In this document: one piece after another, positions 1-43,088 of the stretch
How the letters are laid out: every line of letters begins with the position of its first letter
Position numbering within the stretch: position 1 is the first letter of the stretch
Origin: Spironucleus salmonicida
Taxonomy: Eukaryota
Reading direction: 5' to 3'
DNA: 64,000 nucleotides
Assembly: GCF_000497125.1 (NCBI RefSeq)
Contig: NC_090600.1
Coordinates: forward strand, 1,509,197-1,573,196
Notes under the pieces: generated by a model
Told to the model about the DNA's origin: nothing
The model's input: only the letters and a program-made list of their open reading frames with translations
Database searches by the model: none
Program-made: the position numbers and the translations under genes

Positions 1-294
1 GTCAAAAACATAAATTATTAATTTAGCTCCGGACGCATATGTTTTAAGCATTTTAGACCCAACAGACTAACCACCAATATCAAATAAATTGAAAGATATC
101 TCTTAATCAGTTGGTAACTGAATCGTTCTCGAAAAAAAATCTACTCCAAGAGTTTATTTATATTATTCCGCAAAAAAATCTTAACAAAATCTATTACAAA
201 TGGATGATTTTCCAACAGAGCCATCACCTACTATTGCAACTTTAAATGATAAGGGTTAAGAATCTTAACCTGAAGAAGTGCTCTCATCTAGCAT
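1..294 (-). CDS. RAB28: Rab28-like small GTPase (3' end runs off the window)
   Basis: Code-6 translation MLDESTSSGQDSQPLSFKVAIVGDGSVGKSSICNRFCQDFFAEQYKQTLGVDFF...FDIGGQSVGSKMLKTY. It has a G1 P-loop and the DIGGQxxGxKML G3 region typical of Rab28. Confidence 0.9.
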
Positions 295-327
295 TTTAAT
301 ATATTACTATTATATGTAAATTAAAAA

Positions 328-1977
328 TCAAAATTCATTCTCTTCAGTTTCTAATTGTCCATCCAAATTATTATGATACTCCAACTCATTTTGAAGCGCT
401 AGACATTCTTATACTTTTTATAAATATCTTTATTTACAAGCCTACGTCTAGACTTCTAGCAATTTTCCCCGCTCTTCAATAGAACTTCCTCTTGCACGGA
501 GTAAATTAATCTGACTCACAGATAATTAATTATAATCTTAATATTCTAATTATAACCTATTATAATCATTTTCAATTAAACTGGCTCTTTAAGCTGTATT
601 TCTTAAGAACTCTAACTCATTTTTATCAATTTAAACATACTCAATTTTTTATTAAAATTTCCAATTTTATACCTTAGCTATCTTAAGACTCTAAGACATC
701 ATTTTGACGATTCGTAAACTATCACTATCTGAATCTGTTATATTACAAAATTAGTACATATACAATGGAACTTATCCTGTAAATGATGATTTCAATTCTG
801 AAATGAACGGATTCGACAAGTTTGGATTTCCATTTCTGTCACTAGATAAAACTGCAACTACTTGTTTAATTTAGTTGAAAATTTAGTTGTTGGTATATTA
901 TATGACTTTTGTGTACTACTAATAGGCATATTTTCGATCCGCATTCACCCATGCTGACTTTCCAACATCCTTAATAAGAAGCTGTTAATTAACCGATTTT
1001 TGTAAACAGGAACATTTCTACTCCTTTATCTTCTCTGCTAACGTTTACCCATTCGCCGAAATTCCTGATCTAGTCGACCTGAACATCGTCTTGTTGAGCT
1101 GCTCGAAAACATTTTAATTTCGTGATTTTGATAGTTCTACTGAGTTGCTCGGATACATCATTTGGCCTTTAATCGGGCCATTCTAAAGGAAAGAAAACTC
1201 ATTAGTTCCCTGCGTCAGTTGAATTTTGTAGTCGGTGCAGATTTTGGGAATTATTGCAATTTGGAAAAATGCCGTTTTCGAACAAAGTTGGTACTAATCT
1301 GTAGATACAATTTTAAGCTTCAAAATTGACGGTGTAGAAACACTGTATTTAACGACTTTTGGCATTATTTCTTAAAGAATTACATCGGGATGGGCTGGTT
1401 GGTTGAAAATGATATTTCTGGTTGTTATGCTTGTATCTATAAGAAGTATTGGTTCATATTGTTTATTCGCTAATGGGTTGCGTCTTTCCGTTTTTTATGT
1501 CTCGAAAATGTTGAATTCAATATTAATCTACTCAATTTTGTTGTATTATAGCGTAAGATATTCCAGTAATTTTGTAATTATTGACGGTCCATGGGGGCAA
1601 AATGCAAGTTCTACCGCCTCAGGAACTCTTTAATTTGGGGATGCATCTGGAATACGCTTCCGCTTCTATCCCATAACTGAATTATAGGTTGAAAAAAGCA
1701 GAATATTCTGGTCCTGGCCATCTGTTAGTTTTTCGAAAATTGGTGTCAAATCTTTTAATACTTAGATCGACTCTGTTGTTTCAGCATAAACATGTTTGAA
1801 CTTGTAAATTTCAGCTTCTTTTTCGGCTATTTTAGTATTTAGGGATTTTATATTTGAAGTTTTCTTGACTATTGCCAAATGCTCATCGTCTTATCTAAAT
1901 AAATTTATCATTTGGTTATTAAGCGCTCTAGAGGTAGAGGCAAAATCATCAGGAAGTAGTCTAATATTTGGGTGCAT
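328..1977 (-). CDS. 549-aa protein, probable degenerate kinesin motor domain plus C-terminal coiled coil
   Basis: Open in code 6. YKFKHVY..LTPIFEKLTDGQDQNILLF and NQIKQVVAVLS..P..NPFISELKSSFTG..M..DSLRIVKM follow kinesin motor spacing, but the GQTGSGKT P-loop is replaced by STYNSVMG. Confidence 0.5.
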
Positions 1978-5277: not shown

Positions 5278-5784
5278 TCAAATGTTGTATATTATACCAT
5301 TCTCAATTTCGTATGGGTCTCCTTCAATTTATAACCAAGGACAGTAAACAATTCTACCTTGGTAAATCACACATCTTTCTGAATTGGTCTCAGATTTAAA
5401 ATTGCATACAGTTTCCTTATAACCACCAATAAATGATCCCATTGTAAGATCATCTATTTTAAAGTTATTTTACTATTGTGATAATTTTCGCATTCCACAA
5501 CTTACACAACATTTTGATATTATCGCCGGCGGTTATTTTTCCATCCTTAACACGGTGCGCACGAACTCTTCTGTAATTTAATGTCCAAAAGAATACAAAG
5601 CCCCTAACTGCTTTGATTTGATATAGATTTCATTAAATTCCCCTCCATCGAGCGCGCAAAGCTGCACGATATCCTCTGCAGTGTTAATCTGCTCTACACT
5701 GCATTTTAAATTACTTTTAGAATCAAAAACATTAACAAATTAGCCAAACTCCTTACCATAAAATCTAACTGAAAATTGTCGCAT
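5278..5784 (-). CDS. hypothetical protein (168 aa)
   Basis: Code-6 ORF MRQFSVRFYGKEFGQ...ENGIIYNI, convergent with zinc-finger paralog 2 (2-bp gap). Confidence 0.7.
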
Positions 5785-5830
5785 AGAAACCCCGAAATCT
5801 ATAGAAAATTTGGAATTTTTTGCCACGTAA

Positions 5831-6010
5831 ATGCGTGCCTAAATCGAATCTGTTGTAGAAAAAATAATATCATATATCGATATATTAATCTGTTGAACAT
5901 AATTTTAGTAGCTTTTTGTAGAGTATTATGGAGAAAGAAAATCAGCCAGAACTTACGATTTTGGGCCGTCTGTGAATAGTTAATTTATAGAATTTCTTTA
6001 ACAAAAATGA
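5831..6010 (+). pseudogene. TGA-interrupted reading frame (pseudogene remnant or TGA read-through candidate)
   Basis: MRAQIESVVEKIISYIDILIC-TGA(5894-5896)-TQFQQLFVEYYGERKSARTYDFGPSVNSQFIEFLQQK-TGA. The ATG sits 46 bp from the divergent neighbour, as for real genes here. Confidence 0.3.
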
Positions 6011-7006
6011 TCAAAATCAACAGTATGAACTTCTGCATACTTCTAAGGATGTTAGATTAGGTATAACGCTAATTCACAACCGAGTGTCCCGCATCCTGAA
6101 ATTAATACTTTCATTAAGCTAATTATATAATATACATAATATATAATTATTATTAATTAATAATATTAAAAATAAAAAAGTTACACGAATTTGAATAAAT
6201 AATAGAGAATTAAATATAATAAAGAGCCATAATTATAATTAATAGGGATAAATAACTTACAAAATACATCGCCATAATATAAATATACTATATGTAGTTT
6301 TAAATCTCAATAGCTTAGAGTATTTTTATAATTATAATTATTTTAAAATTAAAAAATAGTAGGTTTAATTATGAATGAGTATATTAATTTTAAGATCAAT
6401 ATATGTCTTAATATTAAAAAAATGATAATATATGTTTAAATTTTTTGAGATACAGCGCTAAATAATTTTAGTATAAATTCAGATTATTATTTCTCGATTT
6501 TTATGTATTTGCTTTAATTATAAATCGGTATTGTGAAATGATAATATTTTAGTAAACATATTATATTATTTTTATATATAAACAACCCAATAAATGTATA
6601 TATCAGTGTGCTTTAATTATTTTATAGTACTAATTATATCCGTTTATTCATTGTATAATATAATGGATGAACAATGATCTTCTTTTAAGTATTTTAATAA
6701 TCCTTAGATTTTATGCATCATGAAATATGTATCAGTCACGAAAAATTACACTTTATATTTATCGTAAATATATTATTCTGTCAATATAAAGAGTAAATAC
6801 AATTATTAACATTATATCACTAAACATTCAAGATTTTTTTTGAGAGGTGGATATATTTTAGTAATTTTTACTATTAAGCCTTCATTAGATTCCTCATATT
6901 TTAATATAAATTTATTTTGTATTTAATTTTAATATTCATTACTGATTAATGAATGTTGTTATTTAAAAGTAAATTTTTTACTATAATAACAATTTAAACA
7001 TATATA

Positions 7007-8491
7007 TCACTCGTGCTTCCTGTCATATAGAGCAGCTCTCGCTAATTTCTTTTCCTTTTCGATCTTATCAAATTTATCATATGACTCTGCTTTTTACCCC
7101 AAATTAGTGAATCTTGATGTTAAACCAGTAAGCATTTATGCCAAGGCTTCATTTGATTTCCTAAGCTCTTCAAATTCTTCAATATGTACTTAACTAAGTT
7201 CTGATTTCATCGATAATTCTGCTTCTAAAAATTAGATTCTTGCTAACTATTTCTCAATAATATCTGTATTCTCATCTATAACGTTAATCTTGTCCGATAG
7301 TTCGTTGTCTAAAGCTTAAAGTTTAAGATTAAGTTATTAGTTAAGTGAATTTTTATTTAAGACGTCTGCATTTTATGTATTAATTTTATCATTAAGTTTA
7401 TTTATATTAGATGCCTATTAATCTATTTATACAAGTTATTATTCATCTTTTAGTATATATTTCTTTGACTCATCTACATGTCTTTGAATTTCTTATTTTA
7501 ATGCTTAAATATCCATATTTAAATCATCTATTAAACGCTTGTTAGAATAACAGTCAATAACCTTTTATACATCAACAGTGTAATCCTATAATACCTTGTT
7601 TCTCTAATTTAGTATTTTATTATCCGATTCTAATTACTAATTTTAAGATCTACAAGAAGTTAAAGACTTAGTATTATCCCTGAGCTCATTTTATAAATTT
7701 GTAATTTAATTTTATAATGTTCTAACTTCTACCTGATACAAATCATTAGTTTATTATAATTAAAATTTACTTTAATTAATTTCTTACAAATTCTTCTTCT
7801 AGCTAATAATCTCTACTTACTATTCCCGTAATTTAGCCTATAATTCTTATATTTCAAAAGTTGCCTTACTTAGTTACTCTTCTAGTATTTCAGGTACATT
7901 TTTCTTTAAATAACTAATTTACTAATGCAAAGCTTTAATTTCACCATTACTGCTTGTAAGTTTTTAGGACTGCTCATTAACAACTTAGTTAACATTTTAA
8001 AGTTATTCATCGAGCATTTCGTATTATAATTTTTAAAGTTTCATTTACTCTTTAAGATCTGAATTTTCATTACATTATAGCTCTAAAACATGATCAAAAT
8101 TCTATCTTTCAAGAAGTTTTCGCTCTTTTTCTTAAAGTTTGTATTAATTATATAACTCATTTTGTAGTTATAGTTCATTGTTAAGTTCTTTAATACTGTC
8201 AATTTAAGCTTATAAATTATCTTCTTTTTGCTTAAATTCATGTTATTATTACATAAATTAAGTTCTTAATCTTTCAAATAGTTATGTCAATGGAAGTGCT
8301 TCATCAAGAGCAGAGTCAAAAGCTGGATTTGCTTCAACACCTCTTGATTTTTATTTCTTTTCCTCTGTCATTTTCTCTCTTAATAATCTACCCTAAAGCT
8401 CTAAAAAGTATACTTACTGTTATAAATTATAAATGAATTCTTTTTCTATAGCTTTATCTGGTAATGGTTACTATGGTATATTTCCTGACAT
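7007..8491 (-). CDS. long coiled-coil protein (494 aa)
   Basis: MSGNIPQQPLPDKAIEKEFIYNLQQQVYFLELQGRLLREK..., Q/E/K/L heptad-rich, ends GAG-TGA. Confidence 0.8.
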
Positions 8492-8549
8492 TTATTAAAA
8501 TTTTAGGATTTAGTAATAATAGATATAATAATATAAGTAAAAGTTTTAC

Positions 8550-10667
8550 TCAACAGAAAATGCACTCCCAAATGCTAAAGTCTAAATCCGCATCAATCAG
8601 AGAATAACGAGTATCTATTGTTCTATTTAAAACTCCATCATTTACTTGCTCTATTTTATCAATTATGTTAGATGTAAAATAATGAGAAAAAATATTAATA
8701 TTGCTAAGGAGGCTAATACTTTTTGTGCAAGCGAAATTGTAAATGTCCTACCTAGGATCATTAATCATATATACAAGAATTTGTAGACATACATAAAATG
8801 ATTTAGAGTACGTTAGAAACATATCATTAACTCCATTCTTAATTTACTATTCTGTCACTTTTTTGAATAACGTACTAGCATGTTTCTTACCAGAATTAGG
8901 TTATTATCTGAAATCATTGTTAAGTTATATAGCCAATATTGTGAAATAGGTAACATATTTTTTCATAATATCCATAACGTCAATTTTATTAGCACTTTAA
9001 AAGATGTATTCTCTAATAGCTTGGGTAATATGAAACCAATTTAGTTAACGCAAACCTATACAAGGAGGTTATATCTTGTCAATTATACCTAGTTAAACTA
9101 AACTAATGAATTCATTTTGATCTGCTGATTCATTTTAAAATAATGAATGTACGTCTAAAATATAGAAACTAGCATCCTCAGAGAACATTCCAGGAAATAT
9201 TGATAATGTAGATAACACATGGCATTATGTTTATGATAACCCAGATAATAGTTTTCCTAAACCAGGTGACAGTTTCTCTAATCTAACTGTTGAATGCCCT
9301 AATGATCTGAGTGTTTGTAATGGCTAAACACCATAAAGTTTTGAATTTTAGCATACTAGTCGTAATACTTGCGGTAACCCTGCACAAAGCCTTGAAATCT
9401 CCCTACCTTCTTCTAAACTAACACCTAACTACCCTATAACTAATATAGCACCCTCGTCTTCTGAGAGTGGGGGAACTGATAACTCTAACGAATTAACAGC
9501 AGGGCCTTAATATTCTAGTTAAAGTTAAGACCTTGATGTAAGGATAATATAACAATCTATACCAGCCGGAATTATCTGCTCAATATATTAACAGTTTCCT
9601 ACATTTTCGAGTATCAACACAAATGGTGAAGTTTCTGCAGCTACATTTTTAAATATATTAAGTAATATTTCTGTATTGGTTGATATGTTTTCTTTCTAAT
9701 CTATAATTCCTTCCTTCATTATCGCTGATATATTATTTTTAGCGTGCTCACTAGGGTTAAGTAAATGTGAAACTAGTTATTTATTTACAAATGTTAAATC
9801 TTATTCTGGCTTCATACTTCTGATAAGTTAAACTAAAATATCATCAATTTTTTTAAACTTTTCGTTAACTCCTTTTAAATTTGCTTAAAAGGCTTTTCTT
9901 TATATAGGAAACTGTGCTTTGTCACTGATAATTATTTATTTTAGATGTTCCGCTAGTTTCGATTTTCCTACTGATACTAAGCCAAATAAAATTATTAATT
10001 TAGTTGGAGGCTCATCATTAGCTAAAAATTGTATACATTGTGCTATTATATCCTTTCTGATATTAAAGCTTAATTCATTGTTAATCGCCTTCTAACTAAA
10101 GAATGGCCTGCCTTCTTACATTCGCTACACAATAGTGTCAGTCGTCATTTTTGTTATTCCTCCATCACGCCTAAAGAAAGCTGCTTCATGTTACTTTGTA
10201 GTAAAATATACTGGGGCAGTACCAGGATGTATTGTCGCAACTATTACAACCATTTAAAAAATTTCTTATGACTCTTTGTTTACTAGCTCCCATGGTTTTA
10301 TTCTTGATAGAGTGTATATTTCACTTTCATAATCATCTGGTAGAGTTACATTAATAAAATGAACCTCAGATAGATCTGCATCAACTTGTGGAATAAATTA
10401 TGCGACAGCTGCATCTATAGATAATCTTATTGAATCACGAATTTTACTATCTGTTAATATTCCCTTAACGCGGGAATCATCTTCGATACCAAACCAAAGC
10501 TATCCACCGTGAGAATTCAAAAAGGCATTTAGATATTCACGGGAATATCTACCAATAACATCTGGGAATCTTTTAACATCTTATATACCTTTAAATTCTA
10601 TTAAATTGTTTTCTTCGACTGGTAAAATTTCATTATAAACAAGCTGATTTGGCAATGGTATTATCAT
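8550..10667 (-). CDS. Schlafen/AlbA_2 domain - NB-ARC-type STAND NTPase fusion protein (705 aa)
   Basis: Translated in full in code 6. AlbA_2 motifs: EENNLIEFK, AFLNSHGGQLWFGIEDD..VKGI, FFRRDGGITKM. NTPase motifs: Walker A GLVSVGKS (229-236), Walker B FVLILENV (349-356), sensor-1 YIILTSR, VPPLSEDEGAIL, ISRLCAGLPQVLR, LSIFPGMFS, WFHITQAIREY. Confidence 0.85.
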
Positions 10668-11001
10668 TATGAATCTGTAAATTTGTATATAATTATATAT
10701 AATATTCCTTTGATATAATTTACAAAATACTATATATCATTAATTCTAATTATTAATACTATTCCTACTTTATTTCCTTTTAAATTTTATAAAAACTTGA
10801 CGATTATAGTTTTACCATAACTAGTATTATTTATTCGACAATATATTAAAATTATAAATTGCTTTACATGATTTCTTTTGTTTGAAATAAGGAATTACTG
10901 TATCTCAAATGTTGTAAATATTTTTAATATAAATTATATTTTATTGTATTGTATTTTGAGCAGTTAAAACAAATTTTATTAAATTATATATGAAAATTAT
11001 A

Positions 11002-11898
11002 TCACTTGTCATAATATTAGAGTAATAATCTTATTTACTCTAACACTCCAGGATTTGGTTGATCTTTACTTAACTCTTAGATAAAATAGTCATATAATTA
11101 AGAAATCTTATTAGAACATTTATTGTCTAATAACACTTTACTTTCTTTGCTTTACTCGCATTCTAATAGTTCTTATGCTTTTTCAAAGAATTCCTTATTA
11201 AGGTCGTTAGGAAATTCTGTTCTTGTAGTTAATATTTATTCTTTTTATATAACATCTAATTATTTGCAATTTGTATCTGTGTCTAATATTATTTCTTCTT
11301 TTTAATTAATTTTATCTTATACAATAATTTCAGTAATCTAGCACTCGCTACTAAATTAAAGTACATGAACATGCCCACTGGTTATTCCACCTTAAGATCC
11401 ATAGTATCCACCAGGAAATCTAATAGCAGTCAATACCAATGCAATGAATTAAGTAGTTTATTATAAAATAATGCAAAAATATATAGGCTCGTATAAATCA
11501 ATTTTAATTAGGGTTTCGAGCTATTAACTTTTTAAATATAAACATTTATCAGCTTTTTTAAAAAGTAAATTAAAATAAGGCGACGTAATAATTATATTTT
11601 TAAGTATTTAAGGCCCTGGGATAAAAACATCAGTATCGAATCGCCATTCTGAGATTTATTAATACTATGATGAAAAAAGATCACCACTACTTTTAGAAGC
11701 TACAATATCTGGAGTATCAATAGAAATATTCATTAATTTTTATAATTGGGTTTGCTATATTATTTTAAGATCACCGTTATATATTTTTATTTTCATATCA
11801 GATATAATAATTTCTTATTATTAAGAATCAAATTTCATCGGGACCCCTTGTAAACATGATTCAGAAAATGAAATAGGTATAACTTATTTCACTTCCAT
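11002..11898 (-). CDS. hypothetical protein (298 aa)
   Basis: Code-6 ORF MEVKQVIPISFSESCLQG..., ends AAG-TGA. Confidence 0.7.
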
Positions 11899-11945
11899 TT
11901 ATTATTATTTTATATGATACTATTTAATAGAATTAAAATATAAAA

Positions 11946-13931
11946 ATGGCAGATATATATTCTGATGATGCATTAGAGTTCATCTAAAGCCAAGTGGTTG
12001 ACCTATAATCTAAAAATACAGATTTATTCACATAATCATTAAAAAAGGACAAAACTATTATTGATTTACAAAATACCATTAGTGTTTTAAAGACGGATCA
12101 AAAATAATAAAAAATTCTGATTGAAACATATAAGAAATAGTTCATTTCCCTAGGAATCTGCAATTTTGATAAAGATGGATTAATCGATCTGTAAAAATAC
12201 TAAGACGAAAATATAGATATTAACCAGAGACTTTTAGACCTTTAAATTAAATATGATAATTTAGTAATTGAGCATAGAAATACATTGGAAACTATAACAC
12301 GTACCACTGATACCTTAAGTAATAAAGAATTACAATACTAGGATGAGGTTTTTATGCTCACAAATTAAGTTTGCGATTTGGAATAGAACCTTTCTGAAAT
12401 TAAGATTGAGCTTCAGTTGGCAAATACGCTAATCGATAGTTAAATGGACCAAATCCAAACCATCAAGACTAAGAAACAAACCCTAAAAACTGAAATGAAT
12501 CAAATAACTATATCATTTAACAATAATAAGTTGGCTTTGAGCTCCTTAATAGATACCTTATCTGAAGTTCAGTTTAATATAGACGATATAAGAAATTCTG
12601 TAATTAATATAAAATTTTATTTGCAAACTTAGCTGTCTTAGTTTGATCAGTATTTCAGCTCATAATTTTAGGAACTAGCAACATTAAGTGGTAAGTTCGT
12701 GATAAATTTTTTTAACAAAGGTCAATAAATAAAATTAGAAAAAGATAACTTAATAATGAAAAATGAAGCTCTTTAAGAGTATATCGAAGAGCTCAAAACC
12801 TCTAATTCTGACCTTAATCGGCTTAAAAATTGCGAAAAATAAGCGAATTAATAAATAGAAAATCTGAAAATCGAAATTATCGCGTAGGATCAAGTATTTA
12901 AACTCGAATAATAAGAATTTGAACGAATTATCAGCAAATAAATTACTGAATTAAAAGATTTACGAGATACAGAAGTCCTTTAACAGTAATTATACTAGAA
13001 GTTAACTGCTGAAAATTTAATTTTATAATAAGAGCAAGAAAAATCTGAACGTATAGCAATAGCTAAAACACAAGAGAACTAGGTGCTGAATTAGAAGTTT
13101 ACCAACTAAATTTCTGCATTAAAAGGGCTCTTTAACACTTAGTCTATAACCTTAAACGAGAAAAATAGACAGCTAGACCAGTAGATTAAGTTAAGCAAAA
13201 TTACAATATCTAACCAGCGCAACTAAATTTAGGCAGCCGCAAACTATAACTTGAACTAAAAATCAAGAAATTACGAATTTCAGGGAACGTAAACGGAAAA
13301 TAACGAAGAACGGGATGTCATAAATTCCGAGCTTTCAGTGTCTGTGGAAAAGTTCAAAATATTTACTAGTGATAATTTTAAGAATCTGCTCCTTGAAATT
13401 GACACTGAACAATTACTTGGATGCTATAATCTTGAAAAGTCGTTTTTATAAGCAGTTTTAGACATCAAGGTTTAACACGGGTAGATTGATACAACAATGG
13501 CAAAACATATCATTTATCAGAGGGAAAATACCAAATTAGCTTAAAGTGGGAACGATAATTATACTAGTTTGTTGAGTATTTAGAAGCAGTTCATGAAAGG
13601 AGAATAGGCATCGAAACTGATATAGCTTGATTTTAGTGAATTGATGAAACAAAAAAGTTTTACGAAAGCATAGTTATAACTGATAAAGCTTATATTTAGT
13701 AATGTAGAAGAGTACATGCGGGATTATATTTAAGATCTTAATAGGTAGATTTTGTCGCTTACAAACGAACTTAGGTTTCATGAAATATTAGCAGATAAAG
13801 ATAAATTAAAAAAAGTCAATTAAGTATGTAAAATATTTCAAGAACAGGATATTCCAAAAACTATTTTATAATATAGAAAGACTATAGATGCGTTACGGTT
13901 AGAAATAATTATGATGAAGTCGCACCAGTGA
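11946..13931 (+). CDS. coiled-coil protein (661 aa)
   Basis: MADIYSDDALEFIQSQVVDLQSKN... heptad-rich, ends CAG-TGA. Includes track fragment 12444..12632. Confidence 0.8.
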
Positions 13932-35658: not shown

Positions 35659-36633
35659 TCACTCTTCAAGTAACTTCATCTAATTTTAGATTTTTCTCTT
35701 TAATATACCAATTTTCCTGTTCACATCTTCCACTGCTTTTTCCATGGTATTTTGCATAGCTTTTAAACTTAAATAGTCAATACTATAGGGCCCATCAGAA
35801 GCAGATATTTCTTTCTATTTTAATTTTTCAAGTTATAATACATCAGTTTTTAGTTCCTTTTCTGTATAATCAATTTTTTCCTTAATTTACTTTGTTTGAA
35901 TTTATTTACTAATTATTTCACTATCAATATATTTTTTCTAATCAAGTATTTTATTCAAATCCTACTTAAGTTGATTCATTTATAATAAACAATTTCCAGC
36001 ACTTAGTTTAATTCTTAATAATTCTTAATTTCTAATAGCAATCTTATCTAATAATTTGCTATTTTCAATCTTAAGTTAGTCAAAGTCAACTTAGTTTAAT
36101 CCTTATTGCTAATTAATACCAGAGTTATTTTATTCCTTAATTTTATTGAGCTATTTTTTAAATTACAATTCTTTTTCAGAGAATTGCTAAGTTTGATTCT
36201 TTAATTTTTATGTTTAAATGTTATAAAAAGATTCAATTGCATTAGCATTTACCGATTTTGGCAGCCTATGAATGATTTCCTAGTTAGATTCTTCAATTGA
36301 AAATCCAGTATCACCTAATACTTCTCTCTAATAAATAAAAGTCAATCGGCGAATAGTAGCCAAATTTTATTCATACGCTAAAATAAGTGACTTTAAGCGA
36401 CATGCAGCATCTAGTGAGATTTATGATAGGTATTCATTGTGTGTTTTTAGTTCAGATGATTCAGATAGCGCAATAAGTAATAAATCTGCATTTTCTAATT
36501 ACTAAGGGTTTTCAATATCTGAAATTTCAGGATCATCTATATATCTCTCCTCAAATGCTGATAGAAAGTCATTTTCCTTTAATAATAGTTCATTTTATTA
36601 GATAAGTTCATCAATCTATACGTTTAGGGACAT
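35659..36633 (-). CDS. CCDC113: ciliary coiled-coil protein CCDC113/CFAP263 (DUF4201)
   Basis: LNQVDFDQLKIENSKLLDKIAIRNQELLRIKLSAG, plus N-terminal LLKENDFLSAF. Confidence 0.75.
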
Positions 36634-36702
36634 TTTTTTGCGGAATTAAACATTGTATTTCATATATATTATGAATATAATTTATTGTATTTTGAAAAAT
36701 AA

Positions 36703-37164
36703 ATGCAATAAAAATAAAGAATAACTAATAGTAATGGACTCATTGACCCACCATAATCTTTCTTAACAAAGACAATATTTTTAGATACGACGCCATTGAA
36801 ATAATAAGATAGATGGAAAAAACCAGTTGCATAAAAGTACGAATTTCTTATATAAAGAGAAAGAAAATTAGTTACTTAAAAGTAAACAACTCAAAATGAC
36901 GATTTTTTCTATGATAAGAAAACATATCAAAATATTAAAAGATTTCTACATCAGGATAAATTGCCGACCATCTAAAAATAGAATAACCTTATCAATAGAA
37001 GTAGTGCAATCAATCGATCTGAAAGATTCAAATAACTAAAACCCTGGGATATTACACCAGGTCCCACGGAATATTAAATAAATATCGAATACTTTCGTCC
37101 AAAAACTAGTTGCATTATGGCAGAATCAGCAAGATTTCGAGATTCCGAATTTATTAGCAAGTGA
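36703..37164 (+). CDS. 153-aa protein with SHIPPO/ODF3-type PGP motif
   Basis: RSERFKQLKPWDITPGPTEYQI...SARF; ends AAG-TGA. Confidence 0.65.
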
Positions 37165-38513: not shown

Positions 38514-41042
38514 TCATCCCTCCAATTATTTTTTCTCAATGTCTATTAAGACTCCATTGCTATCGTAGTTAGCCTTGTAAGCACCTAAAAAACTAACACT
38601 ATTCAAAAATTCGCTATTGAGCTCAATCCCACTATTTTAGCACTCTCCCATTAAATATTTTGCACTAACTTTGCTCTCTTTCACACTACTGTTCTAATTG
38701 TATATTTCTAAAGCTTAGAAACATTTTCCCAATATTCCAGCAACTACATCACCTCCTCGTCTTACTAACTATAACAATTCTACTTCTGCCCGTCTCTAAT
38801 GTGCTCCTTTAAGCTATCCAACTAGCTGTCTAACAAATAGTTAACACGAGAAATCAGCATCATCCATGGTACACATTTTTCTAAAGTGAAGCTTTGCATG
38901 GGCTTCTGTAATTCGTAATAAGCATCCAAATTGTCGAGCAGTAACCGGACTGCCATATCGGTGAGTAATTTGCCTAATCTTGACATAAAAATCACGTAAT
39001 TTAGCAGCTACTATTTCTGTGATTTGAGGCTAAACAAGCCTCGCATGCATAATATATTTCTTGATAAATGATTATGGTAATGGTTATCTTTTTACAAGCA
39101 GCTAGGCTGTAACTTGAGCACAATCTAGTGTCTCTGGGAGTCCTTCTTAATTGCCCAATTTTTGCAGTTCATATTCGTATATTTATATCTATTCATTTGT
39201 CAAATTCTCTTTATTTTACAGCATTTTGCGAGCGTAAATTGCCTATTCGCTCGATAACGCTCTCCTGTTAAGTATGAACTACCCAATCCGCTTGTCATTC
39301 TCATGGTCATCCGTTACAATGTAAACAAGGTCAAAACGAGATAACAAAGCGTCCCCAACGTTTAAATTACTGTTTAGCGGCAGATTTCTGTTATAAACTT
39401 AACCCACTGGATTACAAGCCGCTATAACACTGCATTTGGCAGGTAAAGTTGCGATAATCCCCGCTTTTGCGATAGATACTTCCTACTATTCCATTGCTTA
39501 ATGCATAGCCACACGGTCGATCTCGGTCATTTTGTCCAGCTCATCAATGCAGCAAATCCCGTTATTCGACAGCACCATCTGTCCCGCTTACAGTGTGAAT
39601 TCACCACCTCTTTTGACGACTGAAACTGTCAAACCAGCAGCAGACGATGACTTTCCTGAAGAAAATGTGTAGTTTTGAGTATAGTTTTTCAAGTATTTAA
39701 GGAACTAAGATTTTGCAGTTCCAGGATCGCCAATAATAAGTAAGTGAATGTTCTCACGAGTTCCAGCTGAAGGGGTTCCAGAAAGGAGCGAAATTAAGAT
39801 CATCTGCTTCAGGAGTTCGTGGCCGTAAATTGATGGGAAAATAGACGAAATTATGAGGTTGTCGAGATCTGTTGATTTATAGCGTGATAAGAGGGCTTGA
39901 AATGCCGTTATATCTTCTGCATTAAAGGACTCTTCATTGTTGTTCGTTATCGCACCATACACTCTGAAATTGATTTTACAAATGTTGTTTTGGATGTCTT
40001 GAATCTCCCAGATTCCTGTTAAATCTACAGTCATTCCAGGCTTCAGATCAGTAATAAGGTCACCATAAATGATTCCGCTTCGTTTTTCACCATTTTCCAT
40101 TTGCATGACTATATTAACATAAGATGAATAAAGACAGCCTTTAGGGTAAAGTCTAAGCCGAGTTGAACCGCAATCACATTTCTTAGGGACTGCGTTTACT
40201 TCGAATAAACCCATGATAGTGTTGCAGCTTAGGCACTGGATCGAAACTGACTCTAACTATATAAATAAACGTGACTAGCTGATAATTTATGTGTGGATAG
40301 TAGCAATTTTATTAACATCATTAGTGGAAAAAGAATTTACAATATGTAAAGGATTTACTAATTTTAATTAAAATTCATCTGCATGCCTTTCAATTTCATT
40401 AATAAATTAATTTAGTCCTTCCTATAAAACTTCAATGAATTTTTTTGGATGACTTATAATCTCTGTAACAAATAAAGTACTCTCTTCTCGTAAATGTGCT
40501 AAGTTAATAGTCAATGATTTTTTTCCTCGTTAAAATTATTATTTTAACTGGTAAATGTATGTTGGTTCGGAAAATTCGGTACGGAATGTTTTTAAAAAAT
40601 AAATAAATTTGGTCTTAATATGTGGCTTTGACGTACTAGTAGGATTCTTAACAAAGTCAATTAAATGTTACTTAAATATTTCTTCTGATACTGGTTTAAC
40701 TGCAGCTAAGTTATAATCAAGAACAGGTAAAAAGTTTTATTCGCTTACTACTTCAGATTCTGATTCAAATCCTAAAGTTTTAAGCCTTTCGGTAATATTC
40801 TCATTATCAGATATCCTTCTTTTATATTCTGGCTATTCTAACCCATCACGAGCAGCTAAAGCCCTTTCGGCTGCTCTAATTTAAGCAGGCAGTAACGGAT
40901 TTTCGAAAGCTTCTTTTTCAGCTGATAAATCTGTTGAAATCTCTGATTGATCTTATAACTCCATATTATCTCTCATAACCAGATTGATATCATCCAGTTC
41001 TGTTGCTGAAGATGGTTCGGAATTTGTAGATGAGTCTGACAT
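38514..41042 (-). CDS. MCM2: DNA replication licensing factor MCM2 (842 aa)
   Basis: N-terminal RAAERALAARD, C4 zinc finger, IHLLIIGDPGTAKSQFLKY, IDELDKM, SIAKAGI, LLSRFD, PVTARQ..RITEAHAKLH. Confidence 0.93.
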
Positions 41043-41885: not shown

Positions 41886-43088
41886 TCACTTTTTCTTAGT
41901 AGCACCACCTCTAGCATTGTGCTTGAAAAACATAATATCCCCATCTTCAACAATATATTCTTTTCCTTGCATCATAAGCTTACCTTATGCCTTAACTTCC
42001 TATTCAGAGCCTAATTTTTTAAGGTCTTTATACTTGAATACGTCAGCACAGATAAAATGCTCTTTAAAGTCAGTATGAATTACACCAGCTGCATCAGGGG
42101 CTTTAGTATATTTACGAACAGTCCAACAACGCACTTCATCAGCACCTGATGTAAAGTAATGGATTAAATTAAGATCCTTATATCCAGTTTTTATTATCTT
42201 ATCAAGATGGGATTCACATGTTTCTGAAAGGGTTTTTAAATATTCCTGACGCGCGTCATTGTTACCTAAAGCAAGAAGCTTAGCTTCCAATGACGCGGAG
42301 TAAATGATGACAGAAGCATTTGGTGTTCTATCTTTAATAAACTCCATTATTTTTGGAACATACTTATTTTTCTACCTAACATAATCTTTTTCAGACATAT
42401 TAAGCAAATATACAACGGGCTTACAAGTAAGTAGTAAAAGTTCGTTTAATACTTTTATTTCAAGAATACTCCAATCTTAGGTAAATAAGTCTTTCTTTTC
42501 TTCTAACAAAAGTTTGATTTTTTCTAAAACAGGTACTGTTAATTATAATTCTTTCTCAGGTTTGCGCTCTAGCTTTTTTTTAGTATCATCCAACAAAGCT
42601 ACTACCTATTATAAATCTTTTGCAATAAGTTCGTTATTAATAATAACACAATCGCGAACAGGATCGATATCACCTTCTACATGAGTAATAGTATCGTCAT
42701 CAAAAACACGAATAATATGATAAATACCATCGCATGCTTTAATATTGGATAAGAAAGCATTTCCAAGACCTTAACCTTCAGAAGCACCCTTGATTAAACC
42801 AGCAATATCACATACATCTAAATAAGTAGGAACTTTAGACTTAGGTTTATACAAGTCGCACATCCAGTCAAACCTTTTATCAGGAACTGCAACTCTAGCA
42901 GTATTAGGGTCAATAGTGCAGAAAGGATAATTTTCAGATGGAACTTAGACCTATGTTAATACAGTAAAAGTAAGAGATTTACCAACATTAGGTAAACCAA
43001 CTAATCCCATAGATAAACTGTTTTTTGCTCTTCCTAATAAAGCTAACTTAGCGGATGGATCCTCTTCTATATTTTTCTTAGGAGGCAT
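41886..43088 (-). CDS. OLA1: Obg-like ATPase OLA1/YchF
   Basis: [77 protein letters not shown]. Confidence 0.97.

Follow-up and report, generated by a model that had tools for sequence, protein, structure and literature searches.

The gene described here lies at positions 8550-10667 of a 64,000-nt window of Spironucleus salmonicida DNA (contig NC_090600.1; the window is the whole stretch analyzed, and coordinates are counted from its first letter). The gene is nuclear, intact and native to its host, a code-6 hexamitid diplomonad, and its product has two modules. Residues 1-186 form a single-lobe Schlafen/AlbA_2 domain with an intact Ex4ExK+Asp site. Residues 200-565 are, judged from sequence comparisons and a predicted model, a divergent STAND module of the NB-ARC/AP-ATPase type. 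Seven other proteins join a closely similar AlbA_2 domain to the same nucleotide-binding oligomerization domain (NOD), and these eight fusion proteins were used for the conservation counts and the family profile given below. By sequence, the AlbA_2-NOD fusion is conserved in eukaryotes, namely Hexamita, Blattamonas and intron-bearing environmental contigs. The best explanation of the gene is an NB-ARC-switched RNase that serves a cell-autonomous defense or suicide response against viruses or selfish elements, which we hold to be its probable, if far from assured, function.

A native gene in genetic code 6

Translation of the minus strand with NCBI table 6 gave a single open reading frame (ORF) of 705 aa, first ATG to TGA, containing 36 in-frame TAA or TAG codons. 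This is the frame proposed in an initial annotation of the same DNA, and all twelve motifs quoted there were found at about the places it gave. With table 11, no ORF of at least 80 aa overlaps positions 7500-12000. Glutamine is encoded by TAA 28 times, TAG 8 times, CAA 9 times and CAG 3 times, making 36/48 glutamine codons TAA or TAG. G+C at codon positions 1, 2 and 3 is 0.398, 0.310 and 0.211, respectively, which is a coding periodicity. The codon-position composition and the glutamine codons together indicate a native coding frame.

Taken alone, the length of the ORF is no more than moderate evidence, as the DNA is AT-rich (about 28% G+C) and has TGA as its only stop codon. The stop-to-stop frame is 728 codons. 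When the window was mononucleotide-shuffled 100 times, its longest TGA-free frame had a mean length of 453 codons and never exceeded 689. Under table 6, 17 ORFs of at least 100 aa overlap a 4.5-kb stretch around the gene. Spurious overlapping frames of several hundred codons occur in all frames of the window, which makes the length of an ORF a poor guide to genes in this genome. The reality of the gene is settled by the Pfam, homology and fold results presented below. A chance ORF was rejected on homology and fold, and bacterial contamination or recent transfer was rejected on the 36 in-frame TAA and TAG codons and the host-like composition, which mark a native gene. The ATG at 10667 is a sensible start, since the N-terminus agrees with the starts of the relatives.

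Eight sequencing runs of the same organism contain the gene stretch. Four are possible assembly sources, and four come from a second study and are guessed to be RNA. In run X5 of the second study, one 2067-nt contig spans 8588-10653 and bridges both domains; in run X6, and likewise in run X7, two overlapping contigs together do so. All show zero differences, indels or joints. Because these contigs agree with the window, the frame is confirmed in independent data and is intron-free. The contigs of the three runs leave 10674-11007 uncovered, a stretch that is spanned by DNA run X1. As X5-X7 belong to one study and are RNA by guess, this gap hints weakly at best that a transcript shares its limits with the gene.

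A single-lobe Schlafen domain at the N-terminus

The Pfam family SLFN_AlbA_2 (PF04326) matches residues 19-174 with an E value of 1.2e-11 and 45.6 bits, compared with a cut-off of 25.3 bits, and the match covers profile positions 1-117 of 118. When the domain was compared with the PDB using phmmer, 9/9 sequences at E<=1 were Schlafens, with SLFN11 at E 2.3e-8; SAMD9 was absent among them. In the phmmer alignment E19, E24 and D63 fall on E237, E242 and D280 of chain 7zel_A. We take these to be E209, E214 and D252 of SLFN11, since the chain has 929 residues, 28 more than the 901 of the native protein. E19, E24, F25, K26, D63 and D64 are invariant in 8/8 aligned fusion proteins. The Ex4ExK motif is described for SLFN11 and 5,930 prokaryotic Schlafens in section 6 of PMC13056530.

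An AlphaFold model of residues 1-195 (pLDDT 85.9) was compared with 48,161 representative chains. Seven chains reach Z>=8, every one of them a Schlafen, SAMD9 or AlbA_2 protein, and the next chain, which is unrelated, has Z 5.8. The best match is pig SLFN11 (Z 15.1, root-mean-square deviation [rmsd] 2.6, 134 aligned residues, 25% identity); the others are SLFN12, SLFN5, human SAMD9 (Z 14.3, 163 aligned), human SLFN11 and two bacterial AlbA_2 proteins. The Schlafen matches are limited to chain residues of about 168-330, the catalytic C-lobe. Since the C-lobe alone is matched, the domain has one lobe. In this it agrees with SAMD9 and prokaryotic Schlafens and differs from animal Schlafens, whose core is two-lobed. 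The AlbA_2/Schlafen motifs and catalytic positions recognized in the initial annotation are thus borne out by the Pfam score, the SLFN11 alignment and the fold. By analogy with these proteins the domain is predicted to act as an RNase on tRNA or rRNA. A two-copy complex prediction of residues 1-195, in which the supplied alignment was not used, scored 0.00 and 0.00 and is no evidence either way.

An NB-ARC-type module with an HD2-like tail

Residues 195-705 alone (511 aa) were searched against 1.84 billion representative proteins, yielding 52 matches at E<=1e-3. Among 42 long matches, 35 contain Pfam NB-ARC, 19 TPR_12 and 11 BTAD. Two of the NOD relatives have architectures of the conflict-system type: P0028 has an EAD1 effector-associated domain and a second NTPase, and P0051 has a PNP_UDP phosphorylase head and TPRs.

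Alignment with hmmalign placed an FxxR lead-in, Walker A, Walker B, sensor 1, PLSxxE, GLPL and FPG on the corresponding positions of AfsR-type and plant NB-ARC rows. G229, G234 and K235 of the P-loop are invariant in 8/8 fusion proteins, and the sensor-1 residues T469, S470 and R471 (numbering of a 42-row alignment) are nearly invariant. Walker B has Glu-Asn (E354-N) instead of the Asp-Asp of plant and animal NB-ARC proteins, as in 5/8 fusion proteins. Residues of about 300-330 are a family-variable insert that is poorly modelled. The winged-helix end FHITQAIREY was placed rightly in the initial annotation, but its MHD His-Asp column holds T548-Q549, with H546 two residues upstream. The histidine is kept in 1/8 fusion proteins (P0025); it is a characteristic feature of the NB-ARC clade but not universal among STANDs.

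Searched against the PDB, the family profile matches AfsR at 8.9e-28 (profile positions 192-556), Sr35 at 1.7e-11 and Apaf-1 at 2.1e-11. It also matches ADR2, the archaeal STAND PH0952, ZAR1, NRC proteins and Roq1. In NCBIfam, FxSxx_TPR and HaaT lie over the nucleotide-binding domain (NBD), both far below threshold. A full-length AlphaFold (AF2) model was obtained with a mean pLDDT of 84.1 and pTM of 0.68. Its top Foldseek matches are Apaf-1 (4.9e-10), NRC3, CED-4 (1.4e-9), NRC4 and ZAR1, with E values from 5e-10 to 2e-9. With VIA-align the model superposes on the NBD, first helical domain (HD1) and winged-helix domain (WHD) of RPP1, CED-4, NRC4 and Apaf-1 at Z 17-20 over 300-394 residues, including RPP1 at Z 20.3 (300 aligned, rmsd 4.0), CED-4 at Z 20.0 (339 aligned) and active-form Apaf-1 at Z 17.2 (394 aligned, model 185-683). 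The comparison with Apaf-1 and ZAR1 that the initial annotation called for therefore returned both profile and structural matches. The ordered NB-ARC motif set that it had listed stands on motif alignment, profile and fold; a direct Pfam NB-ARC match, as noted below, is absent.

Residues 178-705 of the model align over 300-340 residues with the oligomeric, active forms of RPP1, CED-4 and NRC4. The same region of this model aligns over only 217-225 residues, ending near 467, with ADP-bound Apaf-1 and resting NRC2. Because more residues align with the active forms, the winged helix is modelled in an open-like position. Together with the lost MHD histidine, the longer match to active forms hints at a weakly autoinhibited switch, a hint from a predicted model to which we attach little weight.

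The tail was described initially as about 145 aa of helical sequence after NB-ARC, and the AlphaFold model indeed has five confident helices there, at 564-587, 606-619, 621-635, 640-663 and 666-679. CED-4 (4m9s_A, chain 126..542) aligns with model residues 194..705, and Apaf-1 (5juy_A, chain 114..540) with 185..683. Since both alignments run through the tail, it corresponds to HD2, the helical domain after the winged helix. Pfam found no LRR, TPR, WD40 or other family in the tail, and an Atlas search of it gave weak HEAT-like leads alone, below 0.9. The modelled layout is effector-NBD-HD1-WHD-HD2, that of CED-4, with no visible sensor. The protein is no NLR in the strict sense, as the C-terminal repeat sensor is missing.

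Relatives of the fusion protein

The sole close named relative is a Hexamita inflata protein (P0002; 41% identity over 53% of the query). It is named "AAA-4 domain protein", which is the kind of database entry that the initial annotation had guessed at (AlbA_2 or "AAA"). Two word-index searches, one using the full-length protein and the other residues 1-195, each returned the query and the Hexamita protein alone. The Hexamita gene is probably frameshifted, truncated or mis-modelled. A Blattamonas nauphoetae "putative NLR Family CARD Domain Containing protein" (P0053; 1,533 aa) matches the family profile at E 3.7e-98 and has AlbA_2, NOD and C-terminal leucine-rich repeats (LRRs; LRR_6 2.8e-23), a complete NLR-like layout. 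P0025 combines AlbA_2 and NOD with TPR_12 (2.2e-53).

A quick maximum-likelihood tree of 39 NOD regions was made. All eight fusions fall in one 16-row set with SH-aLRT 96, which leaves 23 rows, all of them bacterial-type NB-ARC proteins (SARP/TPR). The eight remaining rows of the set begin within or just before the NOD, and 3/8 of them retain an N-terminal AlbA_2 remnant. Because the fusion label requires six changes on the tree, monophyly of the complete fusion is not formally shown. The changes likely come from N-terminal truncation of gene models.

A metagenome scan identified six loci, 5/6 of which have AlbA_2 and then NOD on the same strand but in different frames. In locus L005 (900-3900, G+C 0.48) the two domains are spread over exons in different frames, with a GTAAGT...TAG intron within the AlbA_2 region. 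L005 also has long acidic runs, poly-Q low-complexity stretches, and poly-Q/His-rich neighbors. The intron and the low-complexity stretches indicate that L005 is eukaryotic. From low-complexity inserts and the intron-bearing L005 we infer a eukaryotic origin for P0003, P0004, P0015, P0023, P0025 and P0046. A profile search of genome contigs with the family alignment gave 20 pattern matches, none of which was confirmed, and this is no proof that bacteria lack the fusion. The Atlas contains clusters from Pseudomonadota, about 840 aa long, with AlbA_2 in 85-96% and NB-ARC in 22-56% of their members; we treat these as leads. The viral-contig scan gave one match, L001 (3698-6650), which is unrelated to the NB-ARC fusion. 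In L001 an HsdS-like specificity subunit of 429 aa is followed immediately by an AlbA_2 protein of bacterial type (553 aa), a defense-island-like pairing.

A putative switch-controlled RNase and its alternatives

In the mechanism that we favor, the NB-ARC module would keep the protein an inactive monomer. A trigger would then permit nucleotide exchange and oligomerization, which would cluster the N-terminal RNase lobes. The clustered lobes would cut tRNA or rRNA and arrest translation, and the outcome would be cell-autonomous defense or suicide in the face of viruses or other selfish elements. Since a sensor is absent, control may lie with a bound partner or with the AlbA_2 domain itself as a sensor of nucleic acid. 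The candidate triggers are loss of a bound inhibitor or guardee, in the style of CED-4/CED-9, and foreign nucleic acid bound by AlbA_2. In two-lobed Schlafens one chain provides the RNA clamp; a single lobe may need a partner lobe to form it. Nuclease activity, substrate, oligomerization, trigger and immune role are all predicted by analogy with SLFN11/13, SAMD9, Avs9 and the apoptosome and resistosome STANDs. The initial annotation had likewise proposed ligand-triggered oligomerization that activates a translation-arresting RNase. This is plausible by the same analogy, with "ligand-triggered" left without a visible receptor because there are no recognizable ligand-sensing repeats and the tail is HD2-like.

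Several observations weigh against the favored mechanism. Without sensor repeats no trigger can be named. Pfam NB-ARC does not match the protein at E<=1; AAA_16 alone does, at 0.0087, below its cut-off. A single-sequence search of the PDB with residues 195-705 gave 0 matches at E<=10. For want of a direct Pfam or PDB match, the NB-ARC assignment rests on intermediates, profiles and the predicted model. The Thr-Gln in the MHD column and the Glu-Asn in Walker B are departures at two marked positions, and the protein may handle nucleotides differently from Apaf-1 and plant NLRs. The Hexamita relative diverges after Walker B into unrelated sequence and ends at 480 aa, from which the family may be decaying in places. 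PADLOC-DB 2.0 (2023, predating Avs9) gave 0 families at E<=0.01 for the window protein (P0001), P0003, P0015 or P0053. The locus is eukaryotic and has no defense-island context, its neighbors being coiled-coil proteins and a ThiF-family protein. None of the runs covering the gene is on record as RNA. For every protist member of the family, nuclease activity, oligomerization and immunity are predicted by analogy.

The same switch-controlled RNase could instead have a physiological role, cutting tRNA or rRNA in starvation, oxygen stress or encystation-type differentiation and slowing translation. The domain evidence is the same for both roles. No second copy of the gene lies within the 64-kb window, and one copy without sensor repeats is unlike the expanded, repeat-bearing families of immune receptors. 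Stress-induced tRNA halves have reportedly been seen in Giardia. About 30% of prokaryotic Schlafen genes lie outside defense neighborhoods, according to section 6 of PMC13056530. Nevertheless, the characterized AlbA_2+STAND proteins, SAMD9/9L and Avs9, are all defense or cell-death factors, and relatives in the same NOD clade or search bear LRR, TPR, EAD1 and PNP_UDP modules typical of conflict systems. We consider a physiological role unlikely. Another arrangement of the same parts would make AlbA_2 chiefly a sensor of foreign RNA or DNA, with the NB-ARC oligomer signaling to or scaffolding a downstream partner. The protein has no other candidate sensor, SAMD9 is reported in PMC12015307 to bind double-stranded nucleic acids directly, and solved AlbA_2/Schlafen structures include DNA- and RNA-bound forms. 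The catalytic set E19, E24, K26 and D63 is however invariant in 8/8 fusion proteins, favoring retained catalysis; the N-terminus is the usual place of STAND effectors; and by Pfam the protein has no CARD, TIR or Death adaptor domain. A chiefly sensory role of AlbA_2 is thus improbable, more so than the physiological RNase.

It is very improbable that the gene is a decaying or functionless relic, or an AfsR/MalT-like nucleotide-dependent regulator of the transcription type with AlbA_2 as its DNA-binding head. The 705-aa frame is intact with all catalytic and P-loop residues conserved, and the fusion is retained across distant eukaryotes. The BTAD and Trans_reg_C DNA-binding domains of AfsR are absent by Pfam even though no PDB sequence matches the family profile better than AfsR, and on the NOD tree the fusion clade is separate from the SARP-type proteins. 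What remains on the other side is the frequent annotation of AlbA_2 as DNA-binding (PMC5445408), the truncated look of the Hexamita relative and the loss of the MHD histidine.

The NB-ARC-switched defense RNase that we prefer can also be put in a bolder form. Protists would have Schlafen-effector NB-ARC receptors of their own, in sensor-less, TPR and LRR versions, which would be a third origin of the AlbA_2+STAND combination, separate from those of animal SAMD9/9L and bacterial Avs9, and the first cell-autonomous NLR-type antiviral or abortive-infection system of a metamonad. The diplomonad form would be held by an inhibitor or guardee and, once released (by a double-stranded RNA virus, for example), would kill translation via tRNA cleavage. 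We put this forward tentatively and think it rather doubtful that all of it holds.

Features and neighboring genes

The nearest named relative is the Hexamita inflata protein, and the MCM, YchF and tubulin-tyrosine-ligase genes of the window have in-frame TAA or TAG codons (Table 1), as the host's initial placement among code-6 diplomonad-type organisms would have it. With these eukaryotic housekeeping genes and the CCDC113/96 flagellar protein around the gene, the window is chromosomal DNA of a flagellated eukaryote. The immediate neighbors encode lineage-specific coiled-coil proteins without a Pfam match; the product of the ORF downstream is a Gln-rich coiled-coil protein of this kind. Its true start is likely the ATG near 8491 (MSGNIPQQ...), about 58 nt past the stop of the Schlafen-NB-ARC gene, and a gap of this size points to very short intergenic spacers. 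ARAGORN found no tRNA genes in the 64-kb window.

Table 1. Position and basis of the gene, its predicted domains and motifs, and other genes of the window.
Feature	Window position	Residues	Strand	Basis or remark
Whole gene	8550..10667		minus	705 codons + TGA stop; TAA/TAG = Gln; no intron
Single-lobe Schlafen/AlbA_2 domain, predicted RNase effector	10110..10667	1-186	minus	Pfam, PDB sequence matches, fold
Ex4ExK catalytic motif, E-NNLI-E-F-K	10590..10613	19-26 (EENNLIEFK, 18-26)	minus	Alignment and conservation
AFLNSHGG		48-55	minus	Motif present
GIEDD, third catalytic acidic residue D63 (with D64)	10476..10490	60-64	minus	Alignment and conservation
NB-ARC-type STAND module (NBD, HD1, winged helix), putative	8973..10070	200-565	minus	Relatives, profile, model
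Walker A/P-loop, GLVSVGKS	9960..9983	229-236	minus	Aligns with GxxGxGKT of bacterial NB-ARC proteins
Walker B, LILENV	9600..9617	351-356	minus	hmmalign: aligns with LVLDDV/LVLDNA/LILDDM of AfsR-type and plant rows
Sensor-1 arginine strand (RNBS-B), IILTSR	9531..9548	374-379	minus	Aligns with VLVTSR/VITTR of NB-ARC proteins
PPLSEDE		399-405	minus	PLSxxE motif aligned
GLPL motif of HD1 (ARC1), CAGLPQVL	9363..9386	428-435	minus	Aligns with CAGLPLAI/CNGLPLAA (plant NLR) and CARLPLAL (bacterial)
LSIFPGMF		488-495	minus	FPG motif aligned
Winged-helix strand and helix at MHD position, FHITQAIREY	9006..9035	545-554	minus	hmmalign
Five-helix HD2-like tail	8553..8972	566-705	minus	Model; low-confidence end 680-705
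Downstream ORF	7007-8593		minus	As listed, overlaps 3' end of Schlafen-NB-ARC gene by 44 nt
ThiF-family protein	5281-6114		minus	1.7e-8; in-frame TAA/TAG
CCDC113/CCDC96 flagellar coiled-coil protein	35662-36951		minus	1.1e-11; in-frame TAA/TAG
MCM	38517-41042		minus	2.5e-73; in-frame TAA/TAG
YchF-type GTPase	41889-43088		minus	4.1e-36; in-frame TAA/TAG
Tubulin-tyrosine-ligase (TTL) family protein	51388-52647		minus	1.1e-66; in-frame TAA/TAG

Implications

The protein bears on the question of ancestral immunity, that is, which immune modules bacteria, protists, plants and animals have in common. AlbA_2/Schlafen on a STAND is established as antiviral in animals (SAMD9/9L) and has been proposed to be so in bacteria (Avs9, bNACHT34). 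Protists, including deep-branching anaerobic metamonads, join a Schlafen lobe with an intact catalytic site to a STAND of the NB-ARC/apoptosome type, with a C-terminus that varies within the family between none, TPR and LRR. Translation-arresting tRNase immunity becomes testable in diplomonads, a group that includes animal and human parasites. A second question concerns the trigger of a CED-4-like STAND that lacks a sensor. If the RNase is stress-regulated, regulated tRNA cleavage in diplomonads could still have its source in this gene.

Comparison with known systems

A search of one literature collection returned no report of Schlafens in diplomonads or NB-ARC in metamonads and nothing relevant on AlbA_2 with NB-ARC; Supplementary Table 2 of PMC13056530 (55 pSlfn architectures) and the supplements of PMC12680541 may list AlbA_2 fusions to NB-ARC/STAND or from protists. 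The Hexamita inflata genome paper does not mention Schlafen, AAA-4, NB-ARC or NLR. According to a cross-kingdom survey of 2025 (PMC12680541), plants, fungi, algae and protozoa yielded no AlbA_2/Schlafen nuclease on a STAND.

The initial annotation had compared the protein with the helicase-fused mammalian Schlafens alone. This comparison is too narrow, as AlbA_2/Schlafen effectors on STANDs are already described in SAMD9/9L, Avs9 and bNACHT34. The group III Schlafens (SLFN11, SLFN13 and SLFN14) share the Ex4ExK+Asp site and the C-lobe fold; beside the SLFN11 match given above, the C-lobe of SLFN13 matches the N-domain at Z 14.7 and rmsd 2.2. In sequence the AlbA_2 domain shares 25-27% identity with Schlafen C-lobes (E 2e-8) but 15% with SAMD9, and so stands nearer to the former. 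Unlike the group III proteins, the window protein is single-lobed, with no counterpart of the N-lobe, no linker domain and no SF1 helicase, and has NB-ARC instead. With one lobe and no helicase it lies outside the animal Schlafen family proper (SLFN5/11/12/13/14). Cleavage of tRNA by prokaryotic Schlafens is part of phage defense (PMC13056530), and phage-activated bacterial Schlafens are described as cutting the anticodon arm of tRNA and forming hexamers.

SAMD9/9L resemble the window protein in having AlbA_2 on a STAND NTPase (PMC5445408; PMC12680541), where AlbA_2 is a translation-arresting tRNase, and the N-domain model matches SAMD9 AlbA_2 structures at Z 14.3-14.7. PMC10246899 describes SAMD9 as a tRNA-Phe anticodon nuclease. 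Avs9, a bacterial antiviral STAND with an example in Pseudomonas fluorescens, likewise has an N-terminal AlbA_2 domain with acidic catalytic residues on a STAND NTPase. Its cell killing needs the AlbA_2 site, and mutants of the nuclease site abolish toxicity, according to PMC12680541. The window protein lacks the SIR2, TPR and OB-fold (Pfam and model) and SAM (Pfam) of these proteins, its NTPase is of the NB-ARC/AP-ATPase type, and it has 705 aa compared with about 1,590 aa for SAMD9. Avs9 has a long SAMD9-like SIR2-NTPase-TPR-OB body, whereas the family of the window protein is eukaryotic, with code 6 in the present gene and introns in L005. Since SIR2, TPR and OB are missing, the window protein lies outside the SAMD9/Avs9 family.

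The bacterial protein bNACHT34 also has an N-terminal Schlafen RNase effector on a STAND switch, but its NTPase is NACHT, not NB-ARC; bioRxiv 10.1101/2022.07.19.500537 calls it biochemically uncharacterized. CED-4, Apaf-1, Dark and the NB-ARC of plant NLRs share the order and fold of NBD-HD1-WHD-HD2, and a repeat sensor is absent as in CED-4. The window protein differs from CED-4, Apaf-1 and plant NLRs in having an RNase effector in place of a CARD, CC or TIR adaptor, in the lost MHD histidine and Glu-Asn Walker B, and in an identity of 12-17%. Within its own family it differs from the Blattamonas protein, which has C-terminal LRRs and more than twice its length, and from the Hexamita protein, which stops short of the full module. 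An AlbA_2 nuclease on a STAND is thus a known design, with three cases, to which the present gene adds an NB-ARC-based, partly sensor-less family in protists.

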